Shown here one piece after another: positions 16,128 through 38,580 of a stretch of DNA of 64,000 bases. This DNA comes from a virus. A model generated the notes under the pieces. It made no database searches. It was not told where the DNA came from and saw only the letters and a list, made by a program, of their open reading frames with translations. Every line of letters starts with the position of its first letter. The stretch's first letter is position 1. A program made the translations under genes and the position numbers. Location: IMG/VR virus record IMGVR_UViG_3300047550_003584, positions 1-64,000 of that record; one strand, given 5' to 3'.

Positions 16128-16154
16128 CGGGGGCTGCGCATCCGTGTAACGCAG
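16128..16154 (+). promoter_or_regulatory. Pseudoknot-family element (variant copy)
   Basis: CGG..CTGCG-CAT-CCG-TGTAA-CGCAG, 22 nt before the first early ORF. Confidence 0.45.
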
Positions 16155-16424
16155 AGTACCACCGCATTCAACACCATGACAGACCGTATGCAGCGTTTTG
16201 AGACAGCAGCGGAAGCACTTGTCGCTGGCCGTAAGGTTAGCGTACCAGTTCGTGAGCTGCCACAAGGTAACGTGCAGGCTTGGCTAGCCGAGCTACGTAG
16301 TTACGTCATCTTTGGTCACACTGATCCAGGAGATGAAGTGACTTATCGAGTGTACGTTACCGTTAAGGAAGGCCGAGCAATTGCTCAGGCCAAGCTGACA
16401 TACATCGATTGAAGGTTACCTCTT

Positions 16425-16447
16425 CCCCTGGTGAAAGCCAGGGGTTT
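16425..16447 (+). terminator. GNRA-capped hairpin, possible terminator
   Basis: CCCCTGGT-GAAA-GCCAGGGG-TTT after the stop of 16176..16412. Confidence 0.5.
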
Positions 16448-16566
16448 ATGTAGCCCTCAATACCTGCTTCGTTGATACGAATTCGTATCGCGCGTGCGGG
16501 TTTTTGGGTATTCGCGGCACCGCTTCGCCAAGAACCGTTCTCGCGCAAGGGATCTCAGCGATTGCT

Positions 16567-16591
16567 CGTCAAGCTGGACGTTAAACGCAGC
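16567..16591 (+). promoter_or_regulatory. Pseudoknot-family element
   Basis: CGTC-AA-GCTG-GACG-TTAAACG-CAGC. Confidence 0.55.
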
Positions 16592-16616
16592 AGACAACTC
16601 GGCGGTTGGTCACGAC

Positions 16617-16650
16617 CTTGGCATCCACACTTCAGTGGTGTAAGACCAAG
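16617..16650 (+). promoter_or_regulatory. CAU/URUAAG internal-loop element
   Basis: CTTGG-CAT-CCAC(ACTTCA)GTGG-TGTAAGA-CCAAG. Confidence 0.6.
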
Positions 16651-16827
16651 CTCAACCTACGGAGTAACACCGTGACCATCAACCCCACCAAGCTGCTCTC
16701 TCGTGAAGAGGTTGGCGACAAGATCATGCTTGAGATCCTTGATCTCCTTGAGCATGGTCATAGCCAGACTCTCGGTGAGCAGCACCTCCAGGTCATTAAG
16801 TCCTACGTGGACGAGATGCTGGAGAAC

Positions 16828-16897
16828 AACTGATCCGTTAAAGCGGGTGACCAGGTGCAAACCCTGGTCCAGTTATTGCCCCCTGTGGAGATGGGCA
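16828..16897 (+). ncRNA. tRNA-minihelix-like intergenic element 1
   Basis: AACTG/CAGTT + CCG-TTAAAG-CGG + GACCAGG-TGCAAAC-CCTGGTC + ATTGCCC..GGGCA. Confidence 0.6.
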
Positions 16898-17195
16898 CCA
16901 CACACACGGAGAACACCCGTGATTGACCTGACTACTGGTTGGGTATCGCATCCTAATGTACCAGGTGGTTTCCACTTGGTTTACATCGATAGCCTCGTTG
17001 GCGAAATCTCTATCGTTACTGGACCCAAGGGTTCAGGACTGATGGCAGCCAACGATCCAGGTAATGAACCTACCTATGAGGTATGGTTTCCAGGTATGTG
17101 CGACCCGACCGGTTACCTGACTCTTGCCCAAGTGAAAGGCATAATCATGTTCATGCGTCAGCGTGAGCAACAACGCCTTGCTTGGCAAGATGAAG

Positions 17196-17263
17196 ACTGA
17201 GTCCGTATAAGCGGCATTGGCAGGTGCAAACCCTGCCTTCAGTATTGCCACAATCCAGTGGCA
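17196..17263 (+). ncRNA. tRNA-minihelix-like intergenic element 2
   Basis: ACTGAG/TTCAGT + CCG-TATAAG-CGG + GGCAGG-TGCAAAC-CCTGCC + ATTGCCAC..GTGGCA. Confidence 0.6.
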
Positions 17264-17439
17264 CCTACCTTATTCAACACCATGACTTACACCGTCATCA
17301 TCAAGCATCACGACGTATTCTCTCAGTCCTATCTCCAGGGCTGTGAGCAATCGTTTGATACTGAGCAGCAAGCTCAGGACTACATTCAAACATTTGAGGA
17401 TTGGGAACAAGATCTCCTGGAGATTGACTTCAATCCTTT

Positions 17440-17504
17440 CTGAGTAACAGGCGTGATGCCGGGGGATCGAATCCCCCACTCAGTATTGCCACAACTCAGT
17501 GGCA
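17440..17504 (+). ncRNA. tRNA-minihelix-like intergenic element 3
   Basis: CTGAGT/ACTCAG + GGC..GCC + GGGGG-ATCGAAT-CCCCC + ATTGCCAC..GTGGCA. Confidence 0.6.
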
Positions 17505-17716
17505 TTCACCTACACCACACCACCGTGATCAAAAGCGAATCCGTATTTGCATCTATCATCGTTACTGCATTTGGGCTAGGCATCCTTGCTGGCCCAGTCG
17601 CTGGGTACTTCATTGATCGGGCAACTGCCAAGCAATGCATCACCCATGACTGGCCTAAGGAGGCTAACCAAGTGCATCGTGATTGGTGCATTACCAACGG
17701 CTACAAGATCTAAGAC

Positions 17717-18887
17717 TCCTGCTCTGGGGACTACGGTCCCCTCAACAGGACTCAACATCCTGTATCCCACTGCTAACTCAACACCATGTCAATGATCAAG
17801 CACTGCACTGTCGTACTTTCCAACGGCAACGTCGTTGGGATGCATGCAAACGAAGCAGATGCAGAAATGCAAGCAATGGAGCTGGCATACGAATGGCGCA
17901 GACAATCTGACTGCGGCTCTGAAGTACCAGCGCCTAGGCTTGCCGTCCTGTCATTCAATGACTGGATGCAACTGCAGAAAGAGTTTGCATTCTGACTCCT
18001 GCACTTAACCCTTCCGTTGTGGTATGTATGTACTACGACGGTGGGTTTTCTGCAGGCAATCAAGCCTGCTATCCAACTCAACTCAGACCATGACTGCATT
18101 ACACATCCGCAAGAACATTGCAGCACTGCTGGTCAACACAGCTGCTGCTGTAGAGAATGCCAAGCTTCCTGACAAGGAGGCTGCTCGTACCAAGCTGCAT
18201 GACATCCGTTGTCGTGCAGCGGCACTCATGATGCCGAACGATATGGCATTCGTCATCACTCCCAAGAACAACATCTGATCCATGTCAAACAATCACTTCT
18301 TTGATTCCTGTGTGGCTATCATTCTTGGCACTAGCGTGGGCTTACTCGCTTCTGTTGGAGCGCAGAAGCTTCTCAACAGACACTACCAAGCAACGTGCCA
18401 TGACCGACCAGGACACAATTTGATCTACACCCAAGGATTCTTGGGTGATACGTACTACTGCATCAACAGTAAGTACATGAACTGATCTCTGCACTTAACC
18501 TTTCCGTCTTGATACGAATTCATATCGGACGGTAGGTTTTCTGCAGGGTTCTCCCTGCACTACACCACACGACACCACCAGGACTCAACCATGACTCCTA
18601 AAGCTGTTGAACAACTGCTGACCCAAGACGCACGTCTATTGGCTCGCAGAGACTCCCCTGCCATTGACCAAGAGATTGAAGAACAGCGTCAAGCTGCTCT
18701 CGATCTTTTCTTCCAATGGCAAGATGGGTTAGCCCAGTTTCAAGACCTAGTTCCCTTCGTTGCCATCGTGCAGCGTAAAGTAGATCTCAACCGGGATCTG
18801 CTGCGGTGGGAACGCAAGCAACTGGAACAAGACTGACTCTTGCACTGAGGGCCTCCGGGCCTTCTCTGCAGGACTCAACATCCTGCA
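17717..18887 (+). repeat. Four two-state stem elements (17717-17763, 17998-18069, 18487-18559, 18838-18887)
   Basis: CYTGC-[hairpin]-(TG)CAGG-loop-CCTG(C), each starting 1-3 nt after a stop codon. Confidence 0.65.
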
Positions 18888-19385
18888 CCTAATCTTTATC
18901 TCAATTTAACCAATGGCACTAACACTTACGCCACGTGAAATTTTTGATGCATTGCAACCTATCAATGCAAATTCAGATGCTTGTTACTTGGAATTTACAG
19001 GTGACATTGTTTATTTGCATTGGACCACAGATAAGGAGAACGCTCAAATGTATGTAGACAACATCTTTGAGTGTTTAGATATCAAACTCTATGGTCATTG
19101 GGTAGACATCTGCGGGCAACACGAACGTGGTACCCCAGTTACATTGCCTAATGCAGCTTTGTTTGATTGTCGTTATATCCTTGCAACCAACTGATATGAG
19201 GACAATCTACTCCATGGGCAAGGGCAAGTATATCCATTTGGATTCTTACGGTGAGTCTCATGAGACGCGCCGTTGGTCTATTGCCATTGCCACCTTCTCC
19301 CTCATCATCGCCACCATCACCGCTACAGCGTTGGTTGGCGTTGATATGACACAACTCAATCCTCAACCTATCCAGGGACAAATCA

Positions 19386-19733
19386 ATGAATCTCGCTGAA
19401 CACACTCAAGTCCTCGAAGCACGTATCAATGCTTTGATTGATAAGCTGCTCGAGAAGTACCACAAACAGTACGGAGAACTGGGCATCGAGTTTGACATTG
19501 TATGTGGCACTAAGTACTACAAGATCATTCAACGTAACATCAGACGTAACTGTCTTGGTGGCTACGAAGGCAGTGTCCATGCATTTGTCCACAGACAATC
19601 AGGTGCTGTCTACAAGCCTGCTTCGTGGAAAGCACCGGCCAAACACGTACGTTACAACTTGCTTGATGACGTATCATATGGGACCTGCCTACACAATGCC
19701 GACTGGGCAGGCAGCTATCTGTACATGAAATAG
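19386..19733 (+). CDS. Conserved phage hypothetical protein
   Basis: GxKYxKI...SVHAFV...GxVYKPASWKAPAKHVRYNL, a motif I recognise as common in aquatic phages. Confidence 0.7.
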   Translation: MNLAEHTQVLEARINALIDKLLEKYHKQYGELGIEFDIVCGTKYYKIIQRNIRRNCLGGYEGSVHAFVHRQSGAVYKPASWKAPAKHVRYNLLDDVSYGTCLHNADWAGSYLYMK

Positions 19734-19810
19734 CTACAATTCCCTGGGCATCCTCACGTAAGTGAGGTATAAGTCCCAGGGGTTACATCATTTCAACCCA
19801 ACATCTAACC

Positions 19811-20185
19811 ATGCGCAATCGCATCTCACTCGTCAAAGAAGATCGGATCTGGCATCTTAGGTGCCAGGGCTATGGCTACGAATCAATCGGCAGCATTGTC
19901 AACTGCAATCCTGGTTACATGACGATTATCTTACGTCGTGTAAGGCAGCGTCCACCGATTGAAGAAGATCCGATCAAACGAGGAAGAAGAACGAACTTCC
20001 TAAGTGATGCACAAGTAGATGACATTAGAGCACGCAAGGCCAAAGGCGAGACTTGTCATTCAATCTCCAAGGATTATGACTTAAGTGAGTCCGCCATCTG
20101 GAACATTGCAAACCATGTCACCTACAAAGAACCAGCTTATGACAGCGGTTATCATTACAACTTTAGTAATCGGCTAACACGCTGA
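19811..20185 (+). CDS. Helix-turn-helix protein (two HTH-like units)
   Basis: GYGYESIGSIV and LSDAQVDDIR..GET.HSISKDYDLSESAIWNI. Confidence 0.65.
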   Translation: MRNRISLVKEDRIWHLRCQGYGYESIGSIVNCNPGYMTIILRRVRQRPPIEEDPIKRGRRTNFLSDAQVDDIRARKAKGETCHSISKDYDLSESAIWNIANHVTYKEPAYDSGYHYNFSNRLTR

Positions 20186-21700
20186 TCAACCTGGGCATCC
20201 ACAATTGAGAACTCTTCTCAATAACGTGGTGTAAGTCCCTGGCTTACTGTCCATCTCACTCAACTCACACCATGAGAGACCCTAATTTCATTGACGAGCA
20301 ACGTAACGCTGATTTGCTTGATGCCATGGCTGATCTTGCGTACCAGCAGGAGCAAGCCATGCGTGAAGAATACGAACTCAACCCACCAGAACAGGAGACT
20401 TACGATGACCAAGCCTAAGTACACACTACGGCAAGCATGGGATGACGGTGACATCATCGTCATCCTGATCGCAATCATCTCAATTATCATCACGGAGTTT
20501 GCATCATGTCTTACATCTCAGAACTCAAGAAGTTCTACCCCAAGTCCTACAAAGTGCGTTACGCAGTCAACGCCTATAAGGTCCACAAGTACTTCGAACA
20601 CGAAGATCCAACGGTCATTGTTATCCACGAAGTCAGGCTCTGCTACGGCGGACCAGAGGAAGGTGGATGGTGGTACCACGCAGGAGACCCTGTCCTCAGC
20701 CACTGCATCTTTTCCAAGAAGCAGGCGATCCAAACCTTCATCCAGTACTTCGAAGAGTACGAGATCGAAGGGCAGCCGTCTCTTGGAGATACAACAACTC
20801 GATCCAACATCGAGCTTAGCTTCTCCAACGAGCTAGCTAAGGCGTATCCTGAGTCCCGTCCACACTATTGCTAAGCCATGCCAGCAACAACACTACCTGC
20901 ACTCAGCATCAATCAACGCAACCTCTACGCATACTTCCTGAATCACAGGAAGAAGTATGGGAATACACCATGTTTTGTACCTAAGCTTCCAGCGCAAAGC
21001 TCAAGGCTTGAGCAATATCTCCAGGCCTTGGTGCGACTGGAAGAATACGGATTGATACGTGTAGACAGAAGCAGTGATAACTACACAGCATGGATCATGC
21101 TTGCGCCTAAGAGCGCATGACGTAGGTATTTATACTTAATATTGTTTGCTATTGGAAAATAGCCAATACATGCCAATACTTCAGTCATAGCCTCACTCCT
21201 GGGCAGCACCGATGTAAGTACGGTGTATAAGTCCCAGGATTTACCTCAACCCAACTTCACATCAACTATGGAACAAGCTAAGAAGTATCCAGCAATTGAC
21301 TGGACCAAAAATGAGTACCATCAACTGCAGCTGGTAGTTGATGCACTCAAAGCCATTTGTGCTCGCGAAGATAAACGTCATCAAATGGACGAGCATCTCG
21401 ATCCACACATGCGTAACGTTATCGATGAAGTGATCGGTATGTTAAGCGATGAGCTTGACTACGATCCAACGCCTAACGAACCTGGTGAACCACCCATGAC
21501 AATGAATGAAATGCACAGCGCTGCATGGAAAGAACATCAGGAGATGCATCGGTAACAGCCGACCAGGGGGACTAGTACATAAGTACTTCCCCCCTCAAAC
21601 TCCCCCGTTGGAGCACCAGGGAATCCTTGGATTTATATAGGAAATACTTATGTCCCAATCCTTGACTTCTCTGGTATTTATATCTAATTAACCTTTGATC

Positions 21701-22204
21701 ATGACACACCTTCCATTGCCTTCACTTGATTGGCTTAAGCAATATCTTGCTGTTGATCCAAGTCAGCCTAGTGGTTTGATCTGGATCAAGAACTATGCCA
21801 ACAGGAAGGCGCAAACAATGGCAGGTTCCGTGAATACAAACGGATATTATCAAGTCAGAATCAAAGGTAAACTTTACCTAACTCATAGAATCATTTATTT
21901 TTTACTAAACGAGAGAGACCCAGCTGACCAGGTTGTTGATCATGTTTACTCCAAAGCTAATCATGTAGATGTTCGTTGCGCAAACTATGTTCAGAATTCT
22001 TTCAACTCTAAACATCAAGCGACTGTTACATCGAGTGATTACAAAGGAGTTACATGGGATCGCAACAAATGGAAGGCTCGTATTTCCTATGGAGGAATAA
22101 CTTATGACTTAGGAAGATTCGATGATGAAATCAAAGCTGCTCAAGCATATGACCTCAAAGCTGTCGAGCTTGATCCAGAGTTTGCATTTCTTAACTTTCC
22201 ATGA
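21701..22204 (+). CDS. HNH-AP2 homing endonuclease-like protein
   Basis: PSGLIW..AG..GYY..HRIIY..VDH, then AP2 segment SDYKGV.W...WKARI..LGRF.DE..AAQAYD. Confidence 0.8.
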   Translation: MTHLPLPSLDWLKQYLAVDPSQPSGLIWIKNYANRKAQTMAGSVNTNGYYQVRIKGKLYLTHRIIYFLLNERDPADQVVDHVYSKANHVDVRCANYVQNSFNSKHQATVTSSDYKGVTWDRNKWKARISYGGITYDLGRFDDEIKAAQAYDLKAVELDPEFAFLNFP

Positions 22205-22462
22205 GGGGCTTGCGCTCCCTGGTAGACTTACCTCGTTACTCAACTCATCTCAACTCATGACTGACAACACTCCTTGCATACCAGACTCCATGGATATGCA
22301 AAGACTTCAAGCTATGCAACTTGTTGCCAAGATGAAGGAATCTGCAGAGAGACATGGCATTGGATTCATTGGTGGATTCATCTCACCTAACGGTGAGAAG
22401 TTTGTAATGACCAACATGACAAACGATGATGACATCAATGCACTAATGCCGGAGGATCTCAA

Positions 22463-22702
22463 ATGACTCAACAACACCCTGTTGTTCCAACCAAATATCT
22501 ATTTGATGCTTGGCGTCAACAATACATAGAACATGAGAAAGACTTTAGTGAACTTCTTACTGAAGCTGCACAGTGGGGTGCAGATATTGAATTAGAAGAA
22601 TGCTGTGCATTATTCAAATCTAATTCGGTATGTGGCACCAAGTTCCAACGTGACTCTTCTGTGCGGGATCTACGCAATAAACGTAGACCGAAACCGAAGT
22701 AA
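22463..22702 (+). CDS. TQxHP/AAQWGAD family paralog
   Basis: MTQQHPVVP..AAQWGADIELEECC..RRPKPK. Confidence 0.65.
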   Translation: MTQQHPVVPTKYLFDAWRQQYIEHEKDFSELLTEAAQWGADIELEECCALFKSNSVCGTKFQRDSSVRDLRNKRRPKPK

Positions 22703-22769
22703 ACAACATTGACAGTATCAATTACTGGTACTGAAGATGAACTTGAACAACTCATTCGTAAACTCAAAG

Positions 22770-22967
22770 ATGACCGACAAATCTCCGTTAAATTTTGACA
22801 AGACTATTGCTGGATTCAACGTCACTGAAAAGGGCGTTCAATCGTACAGCAAATCGTTTCAACTTGGTCCGTTTCAACTCACACTCAATGCTCGTGAGTC
22901 TGGTGTCCGTGGATCAATCAGTATCCCTGGCACAGGATTAAGCAAACGAAACATTAAATTATTCTAA
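22770..22967 (+). CDS. DUF4236-like protein
   Basis: KSFQLGPFQLTL..SGVRGSISIPGTGLS. Confidence 0.55.
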   Translation: MTDKSPLNFDKTIAGFNVTEKGVQSYSKSFQLGPFQLTLNARESGVRGSISIPGTGLSKRNIKLF

Positions 22968-23648
22968 AGATCCTGGGCATCCTTACGGTGTAAGTCCCAG
23001 ATCCCGTCCACTTACTCAACTCAACTCATGTCTGCTTACGTCGAGAACCTTACCCTGTTTGATCGCATCAATCTTGCTGCCTGCGCACAACGCAGGGCAT
23101 CAGCAAATGTGTTGGATTCAACACGATTTAAAGGCGAGTTTGACACGGCACGTCTGTGGACTAAGTATCGCCTTGTCAAGACCACTACCTATTCCTACAT
23201 CGAGGACAACTAATGACAGTACTTGCTATTGAACACACATCATTTACTGAGACTCATGTCACAGTTACAGCAGTTGTTGACGAAATGCGCCTGCTCTATC
23301 GGGCAACTTACCTTGACCCTGAAGAGTGGGCTCCTGCATTGTGTCAAGCAACTATTGAACTGGATCCAGAGGAACCGATTCCTCTTGACGAAGATGGCTT
23401 CTGCAGTTATCTTGATCAGCTCGATCCTCAATGGGAATTACTAGACAAGGATGACATCGAATGATTGGATTCTCAATTGAATTCAAACGTTGGTACTTTG
23501 TACTACGTGGTCCTAAAGGTCGCGTCTATCTAGCTACTGGCTTTGCTAAGCACATGCCAGTATTTGTTAATAACCGTAGCATTCATCTTCATGATCTTAC
23601 TGATGATGATATGAGTTACGGCACTTATCGTTGCGACCTTTAGTTAAT

Positions 23649-23677
23649 CGTCCTGGACATGACGTTAAACTGTCCAG
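23649..23677 (+). promoter_or_regulatory. H-type pseudoknot element
   Basis: CGTC-C-TGGACA-T-GACG-TTAAAC-TGTCCA. Confidence 0.75.
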
Positions 23678-23696
23678 TTCAATTACATTTTGCCCA

Positions 23697-23996
23697 ATGG
23701 AAATCAATTCTCCAACACCTCCTTTAGATCTTGTCAATGATTGGATGACGCATTGGTATGACGACAACCAAACAGATGAACTGCAATATGTGTACGTTAC
23801 AAACAAAGCTGCAATGTGGGGTGCCATCTGGGGTGCTACCAATGCTTTGGAAACAGCTATCAAAGACACGGCACCTGTTCATTGGCGTGTAGCAGGTGGC
23901 GCAGAAGATGGCCAACAGGTAGTGCGTGTTATTGATCTAATGGAATGGCTTGAACAATTCCGCAAAGAATACGAAGAAAAGATGTCTTGTAATTAA
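23697..23996 (+). CDS. Divergent TPP/AAxWGA family paralog
   Basis: SPTPPLDLVNDW..KAAMWGA. Confidence 0.5.
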   Translation: MEINSPTPPLDLVNDWMTHWYDDNQTDELQYVYVTNKAAMWGAIWGATNALETAIKDTAPVHWRVAGGAEDGQQVVRVIDLMEWLEQFRKEYEEKMSCN

Positions 23997-24001
23997 TCAA
24001 C

Positions 24002-24029
24002 CGTCCTGGACATGACGTTAAACTGTCCA
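24002..24029 (+). promoter_or_regulatory. H-type pseudoknot element (identical to the 23649 copy)
   Basis: CGTCCTGGACATGACGTTAAACTGTCCA. Confidence 0.75.
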
Positions 24030-24056: not shown

Positions 24057-24599
24057 ATGAAACCTAGGCCACTTCCACCTGTTGACTACTTGCAACAAAT
24101 GTTTTATCTAGATACAACATCTCCTAGTGGTTTACGTTGGCTTAAAGCGCCAAGTGCCTGGACCAAAGCTAACTCTGTTGCAGGTGTTCAACGTACTAAA
24201 GATCATTACTGGCGTGTTCGCTGGAAGTATCAAGGTAAAGCGGTGGATTACATGGCTCATCGGATTGTGTATGCACTACAACATGGCTCTGATCCAGGGG
24301 ATATGTTCGTAGATCATATACACAATGACAAAGACAACAACAAACCATTGCGATTGGCTACTAAATTACAAAACTCACATAATCGTAACGGTCGCAAAAA
24401 CACAAGCAGCATTTACAAAGGTGTCTGTTTAATTAAAGCGACTGGTCGATGGCGTGCATCCATTCGTGTTGATAAACAATTCAAACACATTGGTGTGTAC
24501 GCAACACAAGAAGAAGCAGCCTTGGCTTACAACCAAGCTGCTTTGCTAAACTTTGGTGAGTTTGCTCGCCTTAATCAAATCAATTCAACCGAGAACTAA
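24057..24599 (+). CDS. HNH-AP2 homing endonuclease
   Basis: AHRIVY..VDHIH.DKDNN..LRLAT..QN plus an AP2 domain. Confidence 0.85.
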   Translation: MKPRPLPPVDYLQQMFYLDTTSPSGLRWLKAPSAWTKANSVAGVQRTKDHYWRVRWKYQGKAVDYMAHRIVYALQHGSDPGDMFVDHIHNDKDNNKPLRLATKLQNSHNRNGRKNTSSIYKGVCLIKATGRWRASIRVDKQFKHIGVYATQEEAALAYNQAALLNFGEFARLNQINSTEN

Positions 24600-24601
24600 T
24601 C

Positions 24602-26338
24602 ATGCAATTTGCTCTACCATCTAATCTGCAAACTGAACTGATTGCCTATGATCCAACGCTCAAGGTGTTGGCTAAGCAAGCTAACAAACCTGCAGCCAAG
24701 AAACCTACATATCCACTTGGCAAGATTCCTTGCTTGATACCAACGCATATTGTGCGTGAAGCTGATCAGCAAGATGTAATTGCTCAGATCAATCAGCGTC
24801 CAGCACCACAGCGTTATCAAGTGTTTACTACGCCTGTAGATGTAGCAACACCACAGGCTAGGCTTAAGGTCATTGCCATCCTGTATCACTACGAACAAGT
24901 GTGGTATGCAGCATGGCTACCTTCTAAAAAGGAGAAGGATGATTATGTGTTTGGTCATGCATATGCATTCAAGAACACATCAACTACACATAAAATTGCG
25001 CCAACTTGGATATGGAATAGTAAAGATGATTGCGTTGTCCACGACATTGGTCGTGGCTCACAACTCTTTGTGCATAGCAAAGTTGTAACTAAAGCAGATA
25101 TCTGTGGTCAAAACTATGATAGCTGGCGTAGTTATCCATGGCGAGCAGGTAACCTTTACTGCCAGAAGGGTTATACAATTCGTGACAATGTTGTTACTGA
25201 ATTTGATAACAGCCTAAGGGAAGATCTCCCAACATGGGAGGATTCACGTGGATTGTTTGACAGAATACGCTGCAAGAATATCTTTGATGCAGCAGAAATA
25301 CCGTCAATGATGTCAAAACATCTTGACGAAACTCAAGGCTTGACTGTTGATAACTTCATTGCTGGTTCACTTGCATTCAAAGAAGAGCATGGTTATAGCT
25401 CCATAACATACTCTATTGTCACGAGGATTCAGCACATTGTCGCTAAACCTACTATCAAGAAACTATTGCAAGCAGAGTTGAATCGTAGTATTGATGCATA
25501 CAATGATCCTAATAACAAACATCAGCAACCTATTAAGCAAGGCTTTTTAACTTTTGTACAGATTCTTAACTCAATTGAGTGGATCAATAACATTTGGCCA
25601 GACTGCCCTATTGATTACTATCAGACTTACTTCAAGGAACTCAAGTATCTTCGCTTGACTGAAGTACGTGTACGCAACGGAGCTACACAAGAACCTTGTT
25701 TAATTAATTGGTTACGTGCGCACATGCCTATTGCATCATTGTTTACAATCATGCGCAAGTACTTGGATAGACAACTTACTGAATACAATGGTCGCTGGGT
25801 TGATAGTGATGTTGGTTACCAGCGTCAACGCTTTGGTGAACTAAACGATACATTCTCCATGATGAGTAAGATCTTGGATGCAGGTAAAACACTAGAGCCA
25901 CCAAAGCGTTGGCGACTGACTGAGTTCCATGACTACGTGCAATCTGAGGCATGGAAGATTGAGAATCCAAAGGAATCTTTACGGCAAGATTTATTCCCTG
26001 AACCTATTAAAGTCAAGCGTCTTGATAATGTATGGACATTCTTCCAGCCTATTGATACACATCAACTATCTATGTGGGGTCAAGCCGTACGCAATTGCGT
26101 TGGCTCTGCATCCCACTATGCGGATGACATCAAGAAACGTAAGCACTTCATTGTGCTGTGCATGATTGATAGCAAGCCCACCTTCACAATTCAATTGGTT
26201 GTGGACCAGGGCATGATGTCTGTCAAACAGATTGCTGGTGTTGGTAACCAGCGATTGACTGACGACCAACGTGAAGCTTACACAGAAGCTTTCCGTGAGG
26301 TCTTGCAGCAACGCGAGAAACAGCTAGCATGTAGCTGA
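24602..26338 (+). CDS. PcfJ-like domain protein
   Basis: C-terminal EFHD..QLSMWGQAVRNCVGS..FTIQL..QIAGVGN. Confidence 0.75.
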   Translation: MQFALPSNLQTELIAYDPTLKVLAKQANKPAAKKPTYPLGKIPCLIPTHIVREADQQDVIAQINQRPAPQRYQVFTTPVDVATPQARLKVIAILYHYEQVWYAAWLPSKKEKDDYVFGHAYAFKNTSTTHKIAPTWIWNSKDDCVVHDIGRGSQLFVHSKVVTKADICGQNYDSWRSYPWRAGNLYCQKGYTIRDNVVTEFDNSLREDLPTWEDSRGLFDRIRCKNIFDAAEIPSMMSKHLDETQGLTVDNFIAGSLAFKEEHGYSSITYSIVTRIQHIVAKPTIKKLLQAELNRSIDAYNDPNNKHQQPIKQGFLTFVQILNSIEWINNIWPDCPIDYYQTYFKELKYLRLTEVRVRNGATQEPCLINWLRAHMPIASLFTIMRKYLDRQLTEYNGRWVDSDVGYQRQRFGELNDTFSMMSKILDAGKTLEPPKRWRLTEFHDYVQSEAWKIENPKESLRQDLFPEPIKVKRLDNVWTFFQPIDTHQLSMWGQAVRNCVGSASHYADDIKKRKHFIVLCMIDSKPTFTIQLVVDQGMMSVKQIAGVGNQRLTDDQREAYTEAFREVLQQREKQLACS

Positions 26339-26389: not shown

Positions 26390-26611
26390 ATGACTGACTA
26401 CACCGACGATCAGCTACTTGCCATGGCTATGGCCAACATTGGTGAGTACATCACGGACAACTCACCACAGTACATCTTGATTGAAGAAGATCCTCGCAAT
26501 GAGGATGATTACGATAGCTGGACTTACGGAATGGAAGTCCTACCTCAAGACCACACTTGGCAGTCAGATTCAATTGACGTAAGTCCAAGTGATGCAGACA
26601 TGGCGGAATAG
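26390..26611 (+). CDS. Small acidic hypothetical protein overlapping tRNA-Leu
   Basis: 73 aa; stop codon TAG lies in the tRNA D-loop. Confidence 0.55.
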   Translation: MTDYTDDQLLAMAMANIGEYITDNSPQYILIEEDPRNEDDYDSWTYGMEVLPQDHTWQSDSIDVSPSDADMAE

Positions 26612-26679
26612 GTAGACGCAACGGACTTAAAATCCGTAGGCCATTGGCCGTGAGAGTTCAAGTCTCTCTGTCTGTACCA
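26594..26679 (+). tRNA. trnL: tRNA-Leu(UAA) with encoded CCA
   Basis: Acceptor GCAGACA/TGTCTGT, D-arm GCGGAATAGGTAGACGC, anticodon arm ACGGA-CTTAAAA-TCCGT, long variable arm GGCC-ATT-GGCC, T-arm GAGAG-TTCAAGT-CTCTC, then ACCA. Confidence 0.95.
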
Positions 26680-30172: not shown

Positions 30173-30505
30173 ATGACACAAGAACATCCCATCACCCCAC
30201 CGCCAGAGCTGGTGCAGCAGTGGCGAGAGCAGGCTCCGCGTTGCCGTGACAGTGGCATTGCTCGTGAAGACTGGCTGATAACGCGTGCCGCCCAATGGGG
30301 CGCCGACCAGGAGCTGGAGGCGTGCTGTGAGTGGCTGGAGGACTGGGTGGGCAATGACAGTTATGCAATCCCGATGCGGGCCGCCAGACGCCCCAAGCCG
30401 CCGAGCTTGAAGGAGCAAGCGTTGGCTGCTGCTGCTGAACTTGAAGGCTTTAAGGGCGTTGACATCATCCGCCGCGCCCTTGAACAACTACCCGACAACG
30501 AGTAG
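30173..30505 (+). CDS. TQEHPITPPPELV/AAQWGAD family paralog
   Basis: Conserved blocks as in 27807..28154. Confidence 0.7.
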   Translation: MTQEHPITPPPELVQQWREQAPRCRDSGIAREDWLITRAAQWGADQELEACCEWLEDWVGNDSYAIPMRAARRPKPPSLKEQALAAAAELEGFKGVDIIRRALEQLPDNE

Positions 30506-30519: not shown

Positions 30520-30547
30520 GGACCTGAGTATGTCCCTAAACTACTCA
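30520..30547 (+). promoter_or_regulatory. H-type pseudoknot element (compensated variant)
   Basis: GGAC-C-TGAGTA-T-GTCC-CTAAAC-TACTCA. Confidence 0.75.
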
Positions 30548-30582
30548 TTAGTTTTTCTTATCATTCACTTCAACTCAACACC

Positions 30583-31347
30583 ATGAAACTCCTCAAGTTT
30601 TCCACCGGCAATGGCAAGCTCAAGAATCGTTTGATCTTCAATTTGCCTGCTGGGTACGCATGCCCTCACGCTGGTGTGTGCAAGACCTTTGCTGATCGCA
30701 CCACAGGGCAGATCACTGACTTGCCTCAGTACACAGGCGTGACGGCAACACAGGACTTCCGTTGCTTTGCTGCCATGGCAGAGACACGTCCTGCCGTACG
30801 GGAAGCACGTTGGTACAACTGGGATCTGTTGCGTGAAACTATTCACATGAATGGGAACCAGGCTGTGCTATTGCGTGACCTGATCGACCTATCGCTCTTG
30901 ATGCAACCAGTTAAAGAGTTGATTCGCATCCATGAGTCTGGTGACTTCTGGACTGAGAATTACATGCGAGCTTGGATCATGGTGGCCCAAGGTCGGCCGC
31001 AACAAAAGTTTTACGCATACACCAAGTCTCTTGGCATGTGGTACAACTTGCGTGATATGATCCCATTCAATTTCTATCTCACTGCATCGCACGGTGGCAC
31101 ACTCGACTACTTGATCGATAAGTATCCTGAGGTGTACCAGCGGGTTGCTTATGTTGTGTACACAGAAGAGGAAGCAGCAGAGCGTGGATTGCCCATTGAT
31201 CACAGCGACAGTCATTGTTTAGGTGACAAACCGTTTGCGCTTTTGGTCCATGGATCCCAACGTGCTGGTTCTGATGCCATGGCTGCTATCACACAACGCA
31301 AGAAAGAAGGCAAGTTTGTAGGGTATAGCAAGAAGAATCGGGAATAA
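30583..31347 (+). CDS. GP88-family protein
   Basis: GNGKL..FNLPAG.ACP.AG.C..CFA..IRIHESGDF..FYAYTK. Confidence 0.75.
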   Translation: MKLLKFSTGNGKLKNRLIFNLPAGYACPHAGVCKTFADRTTGQITDLPQYTGVTATQDFRCFAAMAETRPAVREARWYNWDLLRETIHMNGNQAVLLRDLIDLSLLMQPVKELIRIHESGDFWTENYMRAWIMVAQGRPQQKFYAYTKSLGMWYNLRDMIPFNFYLTASHGGTLDYLIDKYPEVYQRVAYVVYTEEEAAERGLPIDHSDSHCLGDKPFALLVHGSQRAGSDAMAAITQRKKEGKFVGYSKKNRE

Positions 31348-31620
31348 TTCCGTAAGCACTTGCGGATCAGGTGAAATCAGATATCATCTATCTGTCTTTC
31401 ATCTGATCCATGTCTTACGTAATTGCTTGTTGGCAATGGGGCAAAGCCCATGCCATCACTGCTAATAGTGAAACCAATAAGTTTGAGTTGATTCCACTAG
31501 ACTCTGATGTAGCTTTAAACAAGATCTTGTCGCTTCCGTATCGTGCGGGTGCACAGCAAATCTTGAAGTGGATCAACAGTAACGATGAAGACCTTGCCTG
31601 TAAAGAACTCTCAATTCAAG

Positions 31621-33444: not shown

Positions 33445-33628
33445 TTATGAAACTCAACAAAGAGAACTCTGGTGTAGTTGCAAAAGCAATTGCATCTGCC
33501 ATTATTGGCATTGTAATTTGGTGCGGTCTTAAATACGCATTTAATTTCACTTGGTTTCAAAGCTTTATGCTTGCTTGGTTGTATTGCATTCTTAGAGATT
33601 CAGTTATTCATTCCAAAGAATAAAGTTA

Positions 33629-33655
33629 CGTCCTAAGCATGACGTTAAACTGCTT
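33629..33655 (+). promoter_or_regulatory. H-type pseudoknot element upstream of ssb
   Basis: CGTC-CT-AAGCA-T-GACG-TTAAAC-TGCTT. Confidence 0.75.
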
Positions 33656-33676
33656 TAACACAACCCTTTTGATCCG

Positions 33677-34492
33677 ATGAATTACGTTGATGTTTGCGCA
33701 ATCCTGAACGAGAATCCTCGTCAGGTGTACACCAGTTCAACCACATTCAACTACTGCGCTGAAGTAACACTTCCGCCAGTTGGCAACAAAGCACCCACTA
33801 TCCTTGTACTCAATGTTTACGGGAAAACCGGAGATGCTTTCCGATCCCTCAACAAAGGAGATCGGGTGTACATTCACGGCTCCAAGCTACGGTTTGATCT
33901 CGAATCAAAAACGTACTCGCTCAATGGAGGAGTTGTTGCTCAAGTTACTGAAGCATTCCCTGTCTTCAACGACGTCATCTTGACGGGACGTTGCATCAAA
34001 GACATTGATCAAACAGATGCACGTGCTTTCAAGACAACCGCAGATGGTTTGATGATTGCCAATCAAACACTCTCGGTAAACACTGGGCGCAACCAAGCTG
34101 ATCTCTTTAACTTCTACGCAATTAACACGGCACAAGATAAGTTCAACCAAGCTGAACTTCTTGTGAACATGACGCGCAAAGGCACTGGTCTTACGATTCG
34201 TGCCAGGATTGTGACCGATGCCTGGACCGATAAAGAGTCCAATCAACGGCGCAGCGTCACCAAGTTGCAGCTTGTGCAGATGACACTGGCTCCCAAAACA
34301 AATGAGTCTCAGCCGAAACAAGTGACATCCCAAACAACTGTGGCATCCACAGAGAATGTTGCTAGCCTATGGGGCGGCAAGACCGTTGAGGAGTCCAGCG
34401 ATCCCTGGAATGCAGGCCCCAACACTGGGCTGCCTGATCTCCCCGGTCAATACGGCAACGCACCTGAATTCAACGACGAAGTTCCATTCTGA
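33677..34492 (+). CDS. ssb: Single-stranded DNA-binding protein (tandem OB folds)
   Basis: Two SSB-like units (MN.V...KGDRVYI.G; NDVILTGR...KGTGLTI.ARI.TDAWTDK) and acidic tail NDEVPF. Confidence 0.8.
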   Translation: MNYVDVCAILNENPRQVYTSSTTFNYCAEVTLPPVGNKAPTILVLNVYGKTGDAFRSLNKGDRVYIHGSKLRFDLESKTYSLNGGVVAQVTEAFPVFNDVILTGRCIKDIDQTDARAFKTTADGLMIANQTLSVNTGRNQADLFNFYAINTAQDKFNQAELLVNMTRKGTGLTIRARIVTDAWTDKESNQRRSVTKLQLVQMTLAPKTNESQPKQVTSQTTVASTENVASLWGGKTVEESSDPWNAGPNTGLPDLPGQYGNAPEFNDEVPF

Positions 34493-34751
34493 TGTCAACT
34501 CAACCTGAAGATCAGTTCACTCTCCTTTATGAGGATGGTAAACGAAAAGTTCTGCATGAGTTCCAGTGCATTGGCACTGATGAAATTGTTGATGAGTTCA
34601 TTAATTTCATGCGTGGTGTTGGGCATCTTGAGCTAAACATCATCGAGCGAATGTACGAAATCTCAAAGCAGTATCTTGCTTTGTACCAAGGGGAGCCAGC
34701 TATTCAGTTACCTCTCCAACAAGATGATCTTGAGAAAGTAGCTTAACTTCC

Positions 34752-34778
34752 CGTCCTCTGGTACGACGTTAAACTGCC
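34752..34778 (+). promoter_or_regulatory. H-type pseudoknot element
   Basis: CGTC-CTCT-GGTA-C-GACG-TTAAAC-TGCC. Confidence 0.65.
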
Positions 34779-34800
34779 TGTCCTTGACTACGAACTAACC

Positions 34801-35820
34801 ATGACTGCTTCAATGACTACTAAGAAAACCTCTGCACTTGCAACACGTGGGCTGGATTCCTTCAAACTTTTCCAAGATAAAAAGTTTGTATCCGGATACC
34901 AGAATCTTGTCACCATCCAACCTCTCAACAAGTCCAAGATCCGAGGTTGGTTCGTGCGGAAGTCAGACCTTGATGCTTGTGGATGGAACGCCACTGAAGA
35001 TCAATTTGCTAAGGGTTCAGTTATCTGGGACTACAAGCAAACTTTTGGTATGGCTCCCAACACTTCAATTGAAGAAGGACTCAATTTCATTGAGCCTCGT
35101 TTGCAAATCCTTTTGCGTTCTCCCCTCATGGTTGAGGAAACCACAGGGATGAGACAGACGATTGGAACCTTTGAGGATCCAGATGTCAAAGAAATGTTTG
35201 ATAACGACAAGGTTGCCGCTGATCTTGCCAACAGCAAAGGCGAGATGTATAAGCGTAAGTACAGTGTACGTACAAAGTACCTGGTCTACGTCTTGACCCA
35301 GGACAACAAACGTGCTCACAAGATTCCCATGGTGCTTACGCTCAAGGGTCTTAACGGCACCGACGTCAGCGACAAGGTCAAACTGTATGAAAAGGAAATG
35401 TCTAAGTGCTTGAGCAAAGCACTGGACTCTGAGGTACCTTTGGCATTCAACGAAAAGTTTTATGCCACCACAGTGTTTGCTCCCGTACTTGCCAACGAGA
35501 TGCGTGGTGCAAACAATGTAGAGATTTGTGCTATCGAATCGTTTGAGATTCCTGATTACAGCTCTCAAGATGAAGCGATTACTTCGCTGAATCGCCTCAG
35601 CATTCCCGATGAAGATCGTGAATCAACCTGGAAGTTCCAGGAGATGTTCAGTGATTACATCAATCAACATGCACGACAAGATGCACAAAAGCTCGGTGGT
35701 GCATACGGAATCAAAGAAGGAGTTGAGATCCTGCCTGTCTCTCGGACTACGGATACAGTTGATGTCAAGGCATTACCTGCTCGTGATCCCCTGACTGGTG
35801 AGGATGCAGATCTGAGCTGA
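34801..35820 (+). CDS. Conserved cyanobacterial/phage protein (DUF5895-like), possibly in recombination
   Basis: 339 aa with PRLQILLRSPL and YLVYVL..DNK..H.IP..LT.KG; family assignment from memory. Confidence 0.5.
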   Translation: MTASMTTKKTSALATRGLDSFKLFQDKKFVSGYQNLVTIQPLNKSKIRGWFVRKSDLDACGWNATEDQFAKGSVIWDYKQTFGMAPNTSIEEGLNFIEPRLQILLRSPLMVEETTGMRQTIGTFEDPDVKEMFDNDKVAADLANSKGEMYKRKYSVRTKYLVYVLTQDNKRAHKIPMVLTLKGLNGTDVSDKVKLYEKEMSKCLSKALDSEVPLAFNEKFYATTVFAPVLANEMRGANNVEICAIESFEIPDYSSQDEAITSLNRLSIPDEDRESTWKFQEMFSDYINQHARQDAQKLGGAYGIKEGVEILPVSRTTDTVDVKALPARDPLTGEDADLS

Positions 35821-36275
35821 TGACTAAAGCAAACACGTCTGTTGATTTGCTTGGAATGATTGACCCCTCCGGGGGTCTTTATTCCTGTTGGCCTTACATT
35901 GGTCGACGATGGCATCGAGATGGCTATGGTTATCCAAAGCGTAACCAAAAAGCAATTCTTGCTCATCGTTGGAGCTACGAGCATCATTACGATGTTGAGT
36001 TAACTCCTAAGATTGTTATCCGACACAAATGTGATAACCCTGCATGTTGTAATCCTTTACATCTAATGCCTGGTTCTCAAGCCGACAACATCAATGACAT
36101 GCATCAAAGAAAGCGCTGGAAGCCTGGGAGGCATCCTTTAACTTTAAATGAAAAGACTATTTGTCAAATCATTGAGTTAAGAAAACAGGGTTTATCGCAA
36201 GACAAAATTGCCAAGATTGTTGGTTGCTCTCAGCCAACAGTTGGTAAATACCTTTTGTTTTGCGACAGCCTGTGA
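35820..36275 (+). CDS. HNH endonuclease with C-terminal HTH
   Basis: AHRWSY..IRHKCDNPACCNPLHL..GSQADN; GLSQDKIAKIVGCSQPTV. Confidence 0.85.
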   Translation: MTKANTSVDLLGMIDPSGGLYSCWPYIGRRWHRDGYGYPKRNQKAILAHRWSYEHHYDVELTPKIVIRHKCDNPACCNPLHLMPGSQADNINDMHQRKRWKPGRHPLTLNEKTICQIIELRKQGLSQDKIAKIVGCSQPTVGKYLLFCDSL

Positions 36276-36795
36276 TTAATCGTTGATAGCTGGGAGCTTA
36301 TGAGAGTAATTATCTTTCATAAGCTCCATTGCATCAGCAACTAATCCTTTGATTGCAATCTGACGCTGCGTGGCAATCTTGGTTAACAAGGTTGCCATTT
36401 CCTTTAGCTCACTCATTGAACTGCAATCATTAATGCTACGTATCATCTTCTCTTGCCAGAACATATCCTCTGGCGACATTTCAAATTTCAACATGTTATT
36501 CAATTGGTTCAGTTTATTCTACGCCTTCATTTAAACTTGACTTGATTCCACTGAATGTGTTAAGGATTACCAAATGAAACCTGAAGACAAAGCCGCACTC
36601 AAGGTTGGTGGTGCCACGGCTCTCATCGTTGGTACCATTGCGTTTTGCGCACCAAACCCTGCTGCTTGGGCCGCTGTGATCTGGGGATCGTATAAGATGG
36701 GCAAGCAGGCCAGGGATCGAGAGATTGACCGGCAAGCCAAAAGACGTTGGTCAACTGACCAAGATCACTGCATCTAACACCACACCATTCAACTC

Positions 36796-37740
36796 ATGAC
36801 AACGCAACTTCAGCAACAAGAACTTAACGCTGCTCAGTCTCTGATCTACACACGTACTAACATTGGTCGTGCGTTCCAGGATTTTGATGACACCGAAATT
36901 GCTGGCATTTATCTGCGAGATGACAATTGTCTTGTGGTGCGTCGTGATGGTAGCGAGCAGGCTTACCCACGGGAGCTGATTAAGCTAGCCTTCACGAATT
37001 ACACCAACCGTCTCAAAGATTTCTTTTCTTACCTTGGCCCTAATTATCGTGGCCCTAGTGTATGGCACAACAATGCTTACGTATTGTTTAAGGGCTGGAA
37101 CTACACACACGCACTCGGACACCTGACTTCCAATGCAAAACTACAAGCTCACTGGGCAGACAAATTTATACACATATCAGACGTTGCCAAAATCACAACC
37201 ATCCTTCAGTCTGACCAAACGGACATTGGCCATTTGGTTGCGCCGGACGGGATGCGGCTTGCGAATCGGCCGATTGATATGGACTCTGAACTGGACGATG
37301 GCACCAAACAAGACTCGATGTTTGGCGAACCTACATGCTCATGTGGGTCCTTTCAACGTCAGCTCAGTAACCTATCTTTTTTCCAAGAAGAGATCCAGGG
37401 ATTTAAACCATGGTGCATCCACCTGAGTTGGTTTAACAAGTACCGTGAGCTGCTGTGCAAGCGCACAGATGCGCGTAACGCTAGTCCCAGTGGAACACCT
37501 GAGAAGTGTGTGGCATGGTTCTATGCACCGCCCAAAGACTCGGTCAGTGATGGACGTTTTGTTTTGTTGTATACCAACCAAGGGGCACAAGCTCCGCTGA
37601 CCCATTGGCGCAACTACAAACCTAACGAAGTGTTCACTCAACACCATGCATGGGATCTATTCTTCAATATGATGGATGCGTCCTATGTGCCATTCCCTGG
37701 CATTGCTTTACCTCAACTCAAGTCTGCTATCAAGAAATGA
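36796..37740 (+). CDS. SWIM zinc-finger protein
   Basis: TCSCGSF...PWCIHL (CxC-n-CxH). Confidence 0.6.
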   Translation: MTTQLQQQELNAAQSLIYTRTNIGRAFQDFDDTEIAGIYLRDDNCLVVRRDGSEQAYPRELIKLAFTNYTNRLKDFFSYLGPNYRGPSVWHNNAYVLFKGWNYTHALGHLTSNAKLQAHWADKFIHISDVAKITTILQSDQTDIGHLVAPDGMRLANRPIDMDSELDDGTKQDSMFGEPTCSCGSFQRQLSNLSFFQEEIQGFKPWCIHLSWFNKYRELLCKRTDARNASPSGTPEKCVAWFYAPPKDSVSDGRFVLLYTNQGAQAPLTHWRNYKPNEVFTQHHAWDLFFNMMDASYVPFPGIALPQLKSAIKK

Positions 37741-38552
37741 CTGACGACATTCTTGAATACGCACGTCAATTAGCTATGCGACCACGCAACGACACAATCA
37801 TGGGCGACAAACGTTATGATCTTGAGATTCCAGAGGACACTCATTGGGAGCTTGTAAAGCTAGCTGCAGACCTTAAAATGCACCACGAAGACTACGCACA
37901 AAACGTATTAATTGGTCATGTTGAATCTGAACTGGATCGAAAAGCTCAAGCTTGAATGTATTGATGAAGAAGATGGCACCATGTCCATCAACATTGAGTG
38001 GGATGAAAAAGATCCTGACCTTGACTACTGGACTTCTCTAGGTCCAGAAGGTCAAGAAGAATTTGTTCTCACTGCACTGCGTGAAGCCTGTGCCTCTTAC
38101 ACTGACACCGAATCTTTTGATGATCATGTCGATTGACACCTACGGCCTTAGTTCTGAGCAGTATACCGAGTTCTTCCATAAAAACTTGCGGTTTGCTGCC
38201 AAGCTTTACCTTGATACCTGCAACATCTTGAGCAGTGAAGGAGTCGGTAATATTGACTTCAAAACTGTCTCAGAGATGTACCAGGAAACTGTATACACAA
38301 CAAACGATGATTGTCGTCGTTACCAAAAGAGCAACAACCCTGAGGTATTGAAAGAAGTTACCGCTGATCTTTATGGTATTAGTCCCAGTAGGGAAGAGCT
38401 GATGGATGAGATTCAATCGCTTAGCGCCAAGGTGGAATCCCTTGTTGACTACATTGGTAACTTGGTCACTATCACTACGGCAGGCCTTGAGGGTATTGCC
38501 ACTACCCTTGATGACAAGGTAGACTGAGCACGCACAAACCCTGCAGAGTTGC

Positions 38553-38580
38553 CGTCCTGGTCATGACGTAAAACTGACCA
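38553..38580 (+). promoter_or_regulatory. H-type pseudoknot element
   Basis: CGTC-C-TGGTCA-T-GACG-TAAAAC-TGACCA; a TTGCCA-18-TAGACT promoter candidate lies just upstream (38496-38525). Confidence 0.75.

Follow-up and report, generated by a model that had tools for sequence, protein, structure and literature searches.

We analyzed a stretch of 64,000 nucleotides of viral DNA, hereafter the window, which represents the first 64 kb of the 76,776-bp IMG/VR virus record IMGVR_UViG_3300047550_003584 (estimated completeness 97%). The virus is distantly related to a cultured freshwater cyanophage, Synechococcus phage S-EIVl. The window carries six clear copies of a short intergenic element, each of which encodes a 28-nucleotide (nt) H-type RNA pseudoknot, here called the knot, on the sense strand within a lengthy polycistronic stretch of replication and recombination genes. 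Sequence comparison showed that its conserved core, (C)GUC-C...A-D-GAC(G)-UUAAACU, is coremin, the Xrn1-resistant motif (xrRNA_C, a type of exoribonuclease-resistant RNA, xrRNA) of plant and fungal RNA viruses. Judged from its sequence, the phage element represents a naturally occurring coremin of the Watson-Crick type; its loop has 8 nt and its second stem 5–6 base pairs (bp), and a downstream hairpin is missing. Regarding its function, we see an about even chance that the knot acts as a directional roadblock to enzymes moving in the 5'->3' direction, most likely RNase J, and thereby protects the downstream cistron.

The copies were called by sequence reading together with a covariance model that encodes stem 2 (S2) only. 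All six lie on the + strand, with starts at 23649, 24002, 30520, 33629, 34752 and 38553 (Table 1), reach 28–53 bits in the model search (E 1e-9 to 3e-4) and share the general form CGTC-C-(S2, 5–6 nt)-T-GACG-TTAAAC-(S2'). The exact pattern matched the 76.8-kb genome five times in forward and zero times in reverse orientation, with zero matches for a backwards control, and a search of bases 64001–76776 gave no more knot copies. The original prediction, made from the letters of the window alone, had counted eight copies, seven of them 20–36 nt before a start codon. Six are solid and stand 20–35 nt before a start codon, including those of the SSB, GP88 and DUF5895 genes. The copy at 16567 is doubtful as a family member with an E value of 2.2: the model matches it only over GACGTTAAAC (model positions 19–28), hairpin 1 (hp1) and the spacer are kept, the loop is 6 nt long and starts with A, and S2 comprises at most 4 bp. 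In addition, it sits within a 341-nt gap, 159 nt from the next long open reading frame (ORF). The remaining one, 16128..16156 (+), is no member; it has neither the GUC/GAC core nor UUAAAC and gave no model match at E<=10. A minus-strand match at 56314-56344 (GAAA-C-TACGACA-C-TTTT-GTAAAAC-TGTCGTA) was rejected as well, as it is without the GUC/GAC core, is missed by the model and probably reflects chance.

The proposed architecture, comprising a stem 1 (S1) of 4 bp, a loop 1 (L1) of 1 nt, an S2 of 5–6 bp and an A-rich loop 3 (L3), was confirmed, and so was the covariation of both stems, mainly via relatives; inside the window, S1 differs only at 30520. Relatives were collected in three partly independent sets, and here and below the counts are those among the copies and matches listed. 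A scan of viral contigs led to loci from about 30 S-EIV1-like phages, in which the model search found 98 distinct copies. A second scan (129 hits) placed no constraint on pair 1 of S1 or on the 3' arm of S2, and a third provided 108 sequences from bacterial genomes as an independent set. Many of the aligned copies are orthologues. Over phage contigs, bacterial genomes and the isolate S-EIVl together, covariation of both stems is seen in >200 relatives.

S1, which is outside the structure given to the model, is paired in 98/98 copies, with double changes at three of its four pairs. Pair 1 is C-G in 81 copies, G-C in 8, U-A in 5, U-G in 2 and A-U in 1; pair 2 is G-C in 97 and C-G in 1; pair 3 is U-A in 91 and A-U in 7. 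S2 is 92% paired in the same 98 copies, with four pairs changed on both sides; 0/500 shuffles reached the observed score, and none of the slid registers of S2 came near the observed pairing score. In the second scan, S1 pair 1 is paired in 116/129 matches (CG67/AT17/TG14/TA13/GC5 vs 13 non-pairs), and 6/6 S2 pairs form in 89/129. The bacterial sequences repeated the covariation of S2, with the outer S1 pair being optional, and across the sets S2 pairing ranges from 87 to 93%. The isolate S-EIVl holds seven copies at orthologous sites, with S1 being CGUC, UGUC, AGUC or GGUC, each with the matching partner. The resulting consensus consists of S1 NGUC/GACN, an invariant C as L1, an S2 of 5–6 freely covarying bp closed by an invariant A-U, a single junction nucleotide after S2 (mostly U or A across the family) and L3 YWAAAC. 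The last position of the loop is U in 75 of the 98 copies, A in 13 and C in 10. At non-terminal pairs, G-U or U-G occurs 46 times and A-C or C-A only 6 times, an excess that places the fold on the sense-strand RNA. All copies point in the direction of the genes.

Across about 30 S-EIV1-like contigs, and likewise in S-EIVl, the knot stands at orthologous sites 5' of roughly seven shared gene families, and the sequence of S2 differs between orthologous knots. Its placement relative to the upstream gene is constrained: in the S-EIV1-like phages, a distance of 0–3 nt between stop codon and knot never occurs, 4 nt occurs twice and exactly 5 nt is seen in 26/92 copies, with no sequence conservation of the spacer. 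On the other side, the distance from the knot to the ATG has a floor of 19 nt and a mode of 20–22 nt. This leader is of the same type after every copy, being G-poor and unstructured and carrying no Shine-Dalgarno sequence (example in Table 1). G is depleted at +28 to +48 relative to the knot, and the 45 nt following the window knots have minimum free energies of 0 to -2.8 kcal/mol. Leaders of the S-EIV1-like phages are less structured than control windows (-2.2 vs -6.2 kcal/mol, p 1.5e-6), and the leader is thus selected to be unstructured. Upstream of the knot, the aligned copies showed no motif at a fixed distance and no -35 element.

Within the window, copy 1 and copy 2 agree in all of their 28 nt, whereas the two copies differ in the relative L051, which suggests gene conversion or a recent duplication. 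Between copy 2 and the PcfJ-like gene (24602-26338) lies the HNH endonuclease gene 24057-24599 (+), which is of the HNH/AP2 homing-endonuclease type; in L051, the equivalent knot is located directly 5' of the PcfJ-like gene.

The link to coremin was found by a literature search with the conserved string. Coremin occurs in beny-, cucumo- and many other plant and fungal RNA viruses (Dilweg et al.; PMC6546385, PMC10520033), and its minimal sequence from beet necrotic yellow vein virus is the 20-mer GUCCGAAGACGUUAAACUAC (PMC6546385, PMC10520033). Its hp1, (C)GUC/GAC(G), must close the loop with a C-G pair, and its loop lp1 is YGAD (4 nt) or YGNNAD (6 nt), in which the first position must be Y, the last D and the second G is required, with octa- and heptaloops being able to function. 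The spacer UUAAACUAC requires A15-17, C18 and U19, while its first two Us tolerate change; the spacer is followed directly by a second hairpin (hp2), which is conserved in structure only (PMC6546385, PMC10520033). Coremin stalls Xrn1 one nucleotide 5' of hp1 (PMC6546385, PMC10520033), blocks scanning ribosomes and stimulates -1 frameshifting when set after a slippery site (PMC6546385, PMC10520033, PMC10321173). Its structure is unsolved, and a pseudoknot has been proposed (PMC10321173). Variants of coremin were picked by a frameshift screen in E. coli. The Watson-Crick type (xrRNA_WCC), in which loop and spacer form an S2 of 3 bp, was selected experimentally and has one natural case, Sanxia picorna-like virus 5; here, hp2 is dispensable for frameshift stimulation and still required for Xrn1 resistance (PMC10321173).

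Comparison of the knot with these features revealed conservation of the inner G-C, U-A and C-G pairs of hp1 at 97–100%, with the outer pair covarying, and of the spacer, with AAA in 98/98 copies, C in 97/98, the next U in 88/90 and Y and W at positions 1 and 2. The loop departs from the lp1 consensus: position 1 is C in 98/98 and the penultimate position A in 90/90, but position 2 is U (81/90) or C and never G. The Watson-Crick S2 with a 1-nt L1 is present, with the register off by one nucleotide and the stem twice as long. An hp2 downstream of the knot is absent from the window copies and the S-EIV1-like set; elsewhere in viral contigs a hairpin is weakly enriched (p 0.04), and in bacteria it is not.

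The first search pattern also caught canonical hexaloop coremins (for example, CGCAAU and CGAGAU) in contigs coding for RNA-dependent RNA polymerases (RdRps) and RNA-virus capsid proteins. These IMG/VR contigs of 2–5.5 kb (L024, L041, L049, L076, L122, L026), in which the motif is often tandem near one end, encode an RdRp, a viral methyltransferase or a dicistrovirus/tombusvirus capsid and are eukaryotic RNA viruses within a collection of 'viral contigs'. Rfam searches of the whole window at the gathering score and of two copies at E<=10 returned only tRNAs and a chance microRNA hit, and those of 17 motif-bearing loci tRNAs only; the Infernal comparison with the ToxI and preQ1 models of Rfam, which the original prediction had suggested, gave no match. 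In the literature searched, we found no report of a coremin-like or other xrRNA in phages or bacteria, although the motif may be among the 10,000 candidates of the IMG/VR structured-RNA survey.

Beyond the S-EIV1 lineage, both unrelated phage contigs and bacterial genomes carry the knot. The bacterial matches are mostly from Bacillota, Planctomycetota, Omnitrophota and candidate phyla, with one cyanobacterium. In the prophages of Firmicutes, a minor-capsid gene with a terminator-like hairpin stands on one side of the knot and a scaffold gene on the other, and the 5-nt spacing from stop to knot recurs. In several phages, the knot is located 1–12 nt 5' of tRNA genes, and in bacterial genomes of Planctomycetota and Omnitrophota it comes after a conserved ORF of 25 amino acids (aa), with which it shares some bases, upstream of an Rrf2 regulator gene. 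The distance from knot to start codon in other phages varies from 9 to 70 nt. This wide spread over genes and taxa speaks against a phage-specific protein operator and a purely translational role, and is in keeping with a physical property that is generic to such a fold. With so few copies per genome, the motif does not lend itself to a class-wide test for a link with RNase J: a scan of 400 Bacilli and 400 Gammaproteobacteria gave no extra pattern match in either class.

Several of these loci show further regularities. In six Firmicute prophages (L200, L216, L292, L298, L086, L308), a Cys-rich 53-aa ORF ends 5 nt 5' of the knot, and a conserved hairpin-like sequence, GCGT(T/G)TCTGG...GTCAGA(A/T)G(G/T)GCAA, without an Rfam match separates the knot from the scaffold gene. 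The gap between knot and tRNA is 3 nt in L187, 1 nt in L191 and 10–12 nt in L155, and knots directly upstream of phage tRNA genes were also observed in L127, L136, L175, L178 and L135. L155 carries two adjacent units, each consisting of hairpin, knot and tRNA. At such sites, the tRNA acceptor stem may take the role of coremin hp2. The Rrf2 arrangement was seen in L288:1700-1940, L306, L221, L215 and about 30 other bacterial loci listed (Planctomycetota, Omnitrophota and other metagenome-assembled genomes). At these loci, a TTGACA-N17-TATCAT promoter overlaps a palindrome and is followed by the ~25-aa ORF (M..IRYMLRPVAHCKEGC..), whose end falls immediately ahead of the knot, at its edge or within it, with the Rrf2-family gene 18–32 nt further; they could be a leader-peptide control circuit using the knot. 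In L184, a 26-nt leader is duplicated along with the knot before 4–5 different genes.

How could such an element act? Like coremin, the knot would mechanically halt machines moving 5'->3' on RNA. The likeliest target in the cyanobacterial host would be the 5'->3' exonuclease RNase J, with scanning RNase E as a second candidate. Following an upstream cut, decay would halt at the knot, and the cistron behind it, whose unstructured leader begins where the knot ends, would retain a protected 5' end and could still be translated. In this way, a single transcript could provide SSB, GP88, DUF5895, the PcfJ-like protein and several small genes with separate mRNA lifetimes. From the geometry established for frameshift stimulators, a ribosome with a stop codon in its A site needs a spacer of 4–5 nt ahead of a structure that it is not to unwind; the floor of 4–5 nt after the stop would let the terminating ribosome reach the stop codon without unwinding the knot, and the floor of ~19 nt before the ATG would leave space for the initiating ribosome.

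A block to RNase J was one of three options raised in the original prediction. It gains from the shared coremin core and from the behavior of a flavivirus xrRNA, another class of Xrn1-resistant RNA, which stops bacterial RNase J1 in vitro; the roadblock action of the knot is what we infer from both. In line with such a role, the knot elsewhere precedes highly expressed or processed RNAs, namely prophage scaffold genes after a terminator-like hairpin and tRNAs, and RNase J is clearly present in two genomes with the motif, those of a cyanobacterium and an Enterococcus. A wider proposal, to which we give slightly less than an even chance, is that the knot represents the first natural class of xrRNA in prokaryotes, with a fold shared with coremin and used by double-stranded DNA (dsDNA) phages, namely S-EIV1-like cyanophages and Firmicute prophages, and by bacterial genes, that would halt RNase J, possibly also scanning RNase E and ribosomes, and would set the lifetimes of cistrons and tRNA precursors.

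Several points weigh against the roadblock. Its main weakness is hp2, which is strictly required for the Xrn1 resistance of coremin, the Watson-Crick type included (PMC10321173), and which the phage copies do not have. Also, loop position 2 is U in the phage knot, where coremin requires G. Among five motif-bearing genomes, only the cyanobacterium and the Enterococcus clearly have RNase J, and the Planctomycetota and Omnitrophota carrying the motif gave only weak RNase J-like matches. The small ORF that runs into the knot in these two phyla points to a ribosome-linked role at least there. Finally, the alignment is rich in orthologues, and the counts given above overstate the number of independent events.

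The strongest rival, although in our view unlikely, is a barrier that acts on ribosomes rather than nucleases. Such a translational insulator would stop readthrough or sliding ribosomes, uncouple cistrons or pause termination, and shield the leader from pairing upstream. The ribosome block and frameshift stimulation by coremin, which the Watson-Crick type achieves without hp2, fit this explanation, and, by the geometry established for frameshift stimulators, a 5-nt spacer brings the knot to the mRNA entry site of a ribosome whose A site holds the stop codon. The same spacing in Firmicute prophages and the conserved 25-aa ORF running into the knot upstream of the Rrf2 gene point in the same direction. 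However, the knot also occurs 1–12 nt 5' of tRNAs and behind terminator-like hairpins, places that no ribosome reaches from upstream; the upstream ORFs of phages avoid the knot instead of entering it, and bacterial ribosomes do not scan from the 5' end. An operator for a trans-acting protein, as the original prediction had suggested with the gene-32 type in mind, is improbable. Here, the phage SSB, for instance, would bind the knot, spread over the leader and co-regulate the translation of replication genes. The combination of a knot with an unstructured, G-poor leader does resemble the gene-32 operator, the downstream set consists of replication and recombination genes including ssb, and the loop nucleotides are highly conserved. 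Nevertheless, the motif turns up in unrelated phages and bacteria whose sequence around each copy (up to ~7 kb to either side) encodes no protein detectably shared with this phage; there it stands before scaffold, PadR, Rrf2 and tRNA genes, and it is also present in eukaryotic RNA viruses; the conservation of the loop is accounted for by the requirements of the coremin fold.

Less probable still is a DNA promoter, in which TAAACT would be the -10 element, the preceding 17 nt the spacer, and transcription would start just past the 3' arm of S2. TAAACT fits TAnnnT, the tRNA of L191 begins 7 nt after it, several copies come after terminator-like hairpins or before tRNA genes, and the cassette of knot and leader in L184 precedes 4–5 different genes. 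A site read in dsDNA, however, leaves the compensatory changes of both interleaved stems unexplained, along with the bias of G-T over A-C and the floor of 4–5 nt after the stop. Moreover, there is no conserved -35 or other motif upstream, the motif works as RNA in cytoplasmic RNA viruses, and no phage RNA polymerase or sigma factor was detected in the genome, a negative result that is weak as the PF00940 search had no match in any control genome. Equally remote are a recoding signal, a riboswitch of the preQ1-I kind and an antitoxin decoy resembling ToxI. Coremin can stimulate -1 frameshifting after a slippery site and the topology is like that of preQ1-I, but no slippery heptamer was seen before the knot in the copies inspected by eye, and the stop-to-ATG phase in the window is mixed (offsets of 53, 60, 77, 53, 54 and 74 nt). 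The single variable nucleotide of loop 2 (L2) leaves no ligand pocket of the preQ1-I type, no Rfam match was obtained, and the distance to the start codon varies over the range given above. The decoy, a further option of the original prediction, found no support: the copies are dispersed singles and form no tandem array, and no ToxN-type gene was seen beside them among the annotated genes.

To the best of our knowledge, the only exonuclease-resistant RNAs on record are those with which eukaryotic RNA viruses stop Xrn1. Bacteria, as far as we are aware, have no Xrn1, many have the 5'->3' exonuclease RNase J, and the 5' stabilisers we know of in bacteria are generic hairpins or bound ribosomes. 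If the roadblock holds true, the same physical solution to RNA protection would be used across domains, by cyanophages, prophages and bacterial chromosomes. It would provide phages with a simple means to tune single cistrons within long transcripts and would constitute a short, portable RNA-stabilising part. In addition, the several hundred natural covarying copies listed would define the pseudoknot architecture of coremin, which is still unsolved. The idea is directly testable, as S-EIVl, which is cultured on Synechococcus PCCC-A2c, carries seven copies.

All genes between ~15.7 and 43.6 kb are located on the + strand; DNA polymerase A, SSB, ThyX, GP88, DUF5895, HNH endonucleases and the PcfJ-like protein are among their products. 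Where the structural block meets the early one, a 1131-aa ORF shows 32–87% identity to its counterparts in relatives. Besides the knot, the early block (~16.4–23.0 kb) contains further families of structured intergenic elements (examples in Table 1). One of these families is CCTGGGCATCC-hairpin-GT(A/G)TAAGTCCCAGG, another consists of CTCCTGCA...CTGCAGG hairpins; they stand directly 3' of a stop codon and are followed by a CA-rich leader. The TATAAG string of the early-block elements was also observed between knot and scaffold gene in the unrelated contigs L008 and L086. Many genes have a leader motif, (C)AACTCAAC(A)CC, directly 5' of the ATG, without a Shine-Dalgarno sequence.

Table 1. Positions of the knot copies and of other features in the window.
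Feature	Position	Strand	Stop to knot (nt)	Knot to ATG (nt)	Description
Knot copy 1	23649..23676	+	5	20	CGTC-C-TGGACA-T-GACG-TTAAAC-TGTCCA; 49.1 bits, E 7e-9; after ORF 23461-23643, before 99-aa ORF (23697-23996)
Knot copy 2	24002..24029	+	5	27	28 nt identical to copy 1; 52.9 bits; after stop at 23996, before HNH endonuclease gene (24057-24599)
Knot copy 3	30520..30547	+	14	35	S1 GGAC/GTCC (both sides changed), L3 CTAAAC; 34.8 bits, E 9e-6; after stop at 30505, before GP88-family gene 30583-31347
Knot copy 4	33629..33656	+	5	20	S2 AAGCA/TGCTT; 47.9 bits; after stop at 33623, before SSB gene 33677-34492
Knot copy 5	34752..34780	+	5	20	Loop longer by 1 nt, S2 weakest (GGTA/TGCC, one G-U); 27.7 bits, E 3e-4; after stop at 34746, before DUF5895 gene 34801-35820
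Knot copy 6	38553..38580	+	25	21	L3 TAAAAC, S2 TGGTCA/TGACCA; 45.3 bits; after stop at 38527, before conserved 37-aa hydrophobic ORF (from 38602), which is followed by Gp157/Gam-like gene 38719-39432
Doubtful divergent copy	16567..16594	+			CGTC-AAGCTG-GACG-TTAAAC-G-CAGC; 10.1 bits, E 2.2
Leader (example)	23677..23696	+			G-poor, unstructured, no Shine-Dalgarno sequence
Leader motif (C)AACTCAAC(A)CC (examples)	16160-16175, 17266-17281, 30565-30582				Window leaders
Other structured intergenic elements (examples)	19742-19785, 20192-20245, 21200-21245, 22972-23005, 17717-17760, 18489-18555, 18840-18880				
1131-aa ORF	12159-15554	-			Junction of structural and early blocks; no Pfam or PHROG match
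tRNA-Leu(TAA)	26594-26679	+			Inside replication block
tRNA-Pro(TGG)	43900-43971	-			
tRNA-Cys(ACA)	44058-44131	-			

Among the known systems, ToxI consists of tandem ~36-nt repeats beside a toxN-type gene, whereas the knot copies are single and 0.35–6.5 kb apart. In the T2/T4 gene 32 knot, a 1-nt L1 spans an S2 of 6–7 bp, and an unstructured leader follows before the start codon. The likeness to this knot is one of geometry only, with one copy here located 5' of ssb, and Rfam has no gene-32 model (PMC10690425). In contrast to the single copy before gene 32 only, the knot precedes many unrelated genes and tRNAs in many taxa, and the SSB encoded here is an OB-fold PF00436 protein and not gp32. 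The preQ1-I riboswitch shares the H-type topology and an A-rich tail in the minor groove of P1. However, its model (RF00522) gave no Infernal match at E<=10; L2 of the knot is one variable nucleotide without the ligand-pairing C, S2 contains no ribosome-binding site, the start codon lies at least 19 nt downstream, and there is no link to que genes. The luteovirid and retroviral frameshift knots of beet western yellows virus (BWYV) and simian retrovirus 1 (SRV-1) are likewise compact and H-type, with an L1 of 1–2 nt containing C, a 1-nt junction, an A-rich last loop and a spacing of ~5–8 nt from the A-site codon, as here (PMC10321173 and general knowledge). In contrast to them, the knot has no slippery site in the copies inspected and no consistent frame relation, and the BWYV and SRV-1 knots do not stop Xrn1.

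Coremin is the system with which the knot shares hp1, the pyrimidine (C) at the first loop position, the loop end A-D, the spacer UUAAACU, the occurrence in repeated copies and the intergenic location. Position by position, the L1 C of the phage knot matches the loop Y of coremin, the invariant A-U matches the loop A with the spacer U, and the junction nucleotide is D-like. Natural variants of the phage knot are substitutions that coremin tolerates, such as the second pair flipped to C-G or a changed bottom pair, and the variants at 30520 (bottom G-C together with CUAAAC) and 38553 (UAAAAC) also belong to the tolerated changes. The knot differs from coremin in its 8-nt loop (C-U-N4-A-U), in its 5–6-bp Watson-Crick S2 formed with the bases after UUAAAC and in having no hp2; unlike coremin, it comes from dsDNA phages and from bacteria, where Xrn1 is absent. 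With xrRNA_WCC, the knot has in common that S1 equals hp1, that L1 is a single nucleotide and that a covarying S2 is formed by loop and spacer. The S2 of xrRNA_WCC has 3 bp and uses spacer C18, with G as L1, whereas C21 of the phage knot is unpaired, S2 begins at the next U and L1 is C. For both, the proposed place of the last-loop adenosines is the minor groove of S1. xrRNA_WCC folds and stalls ribosomes without hp2, a hairpin that the phage knot lacks.

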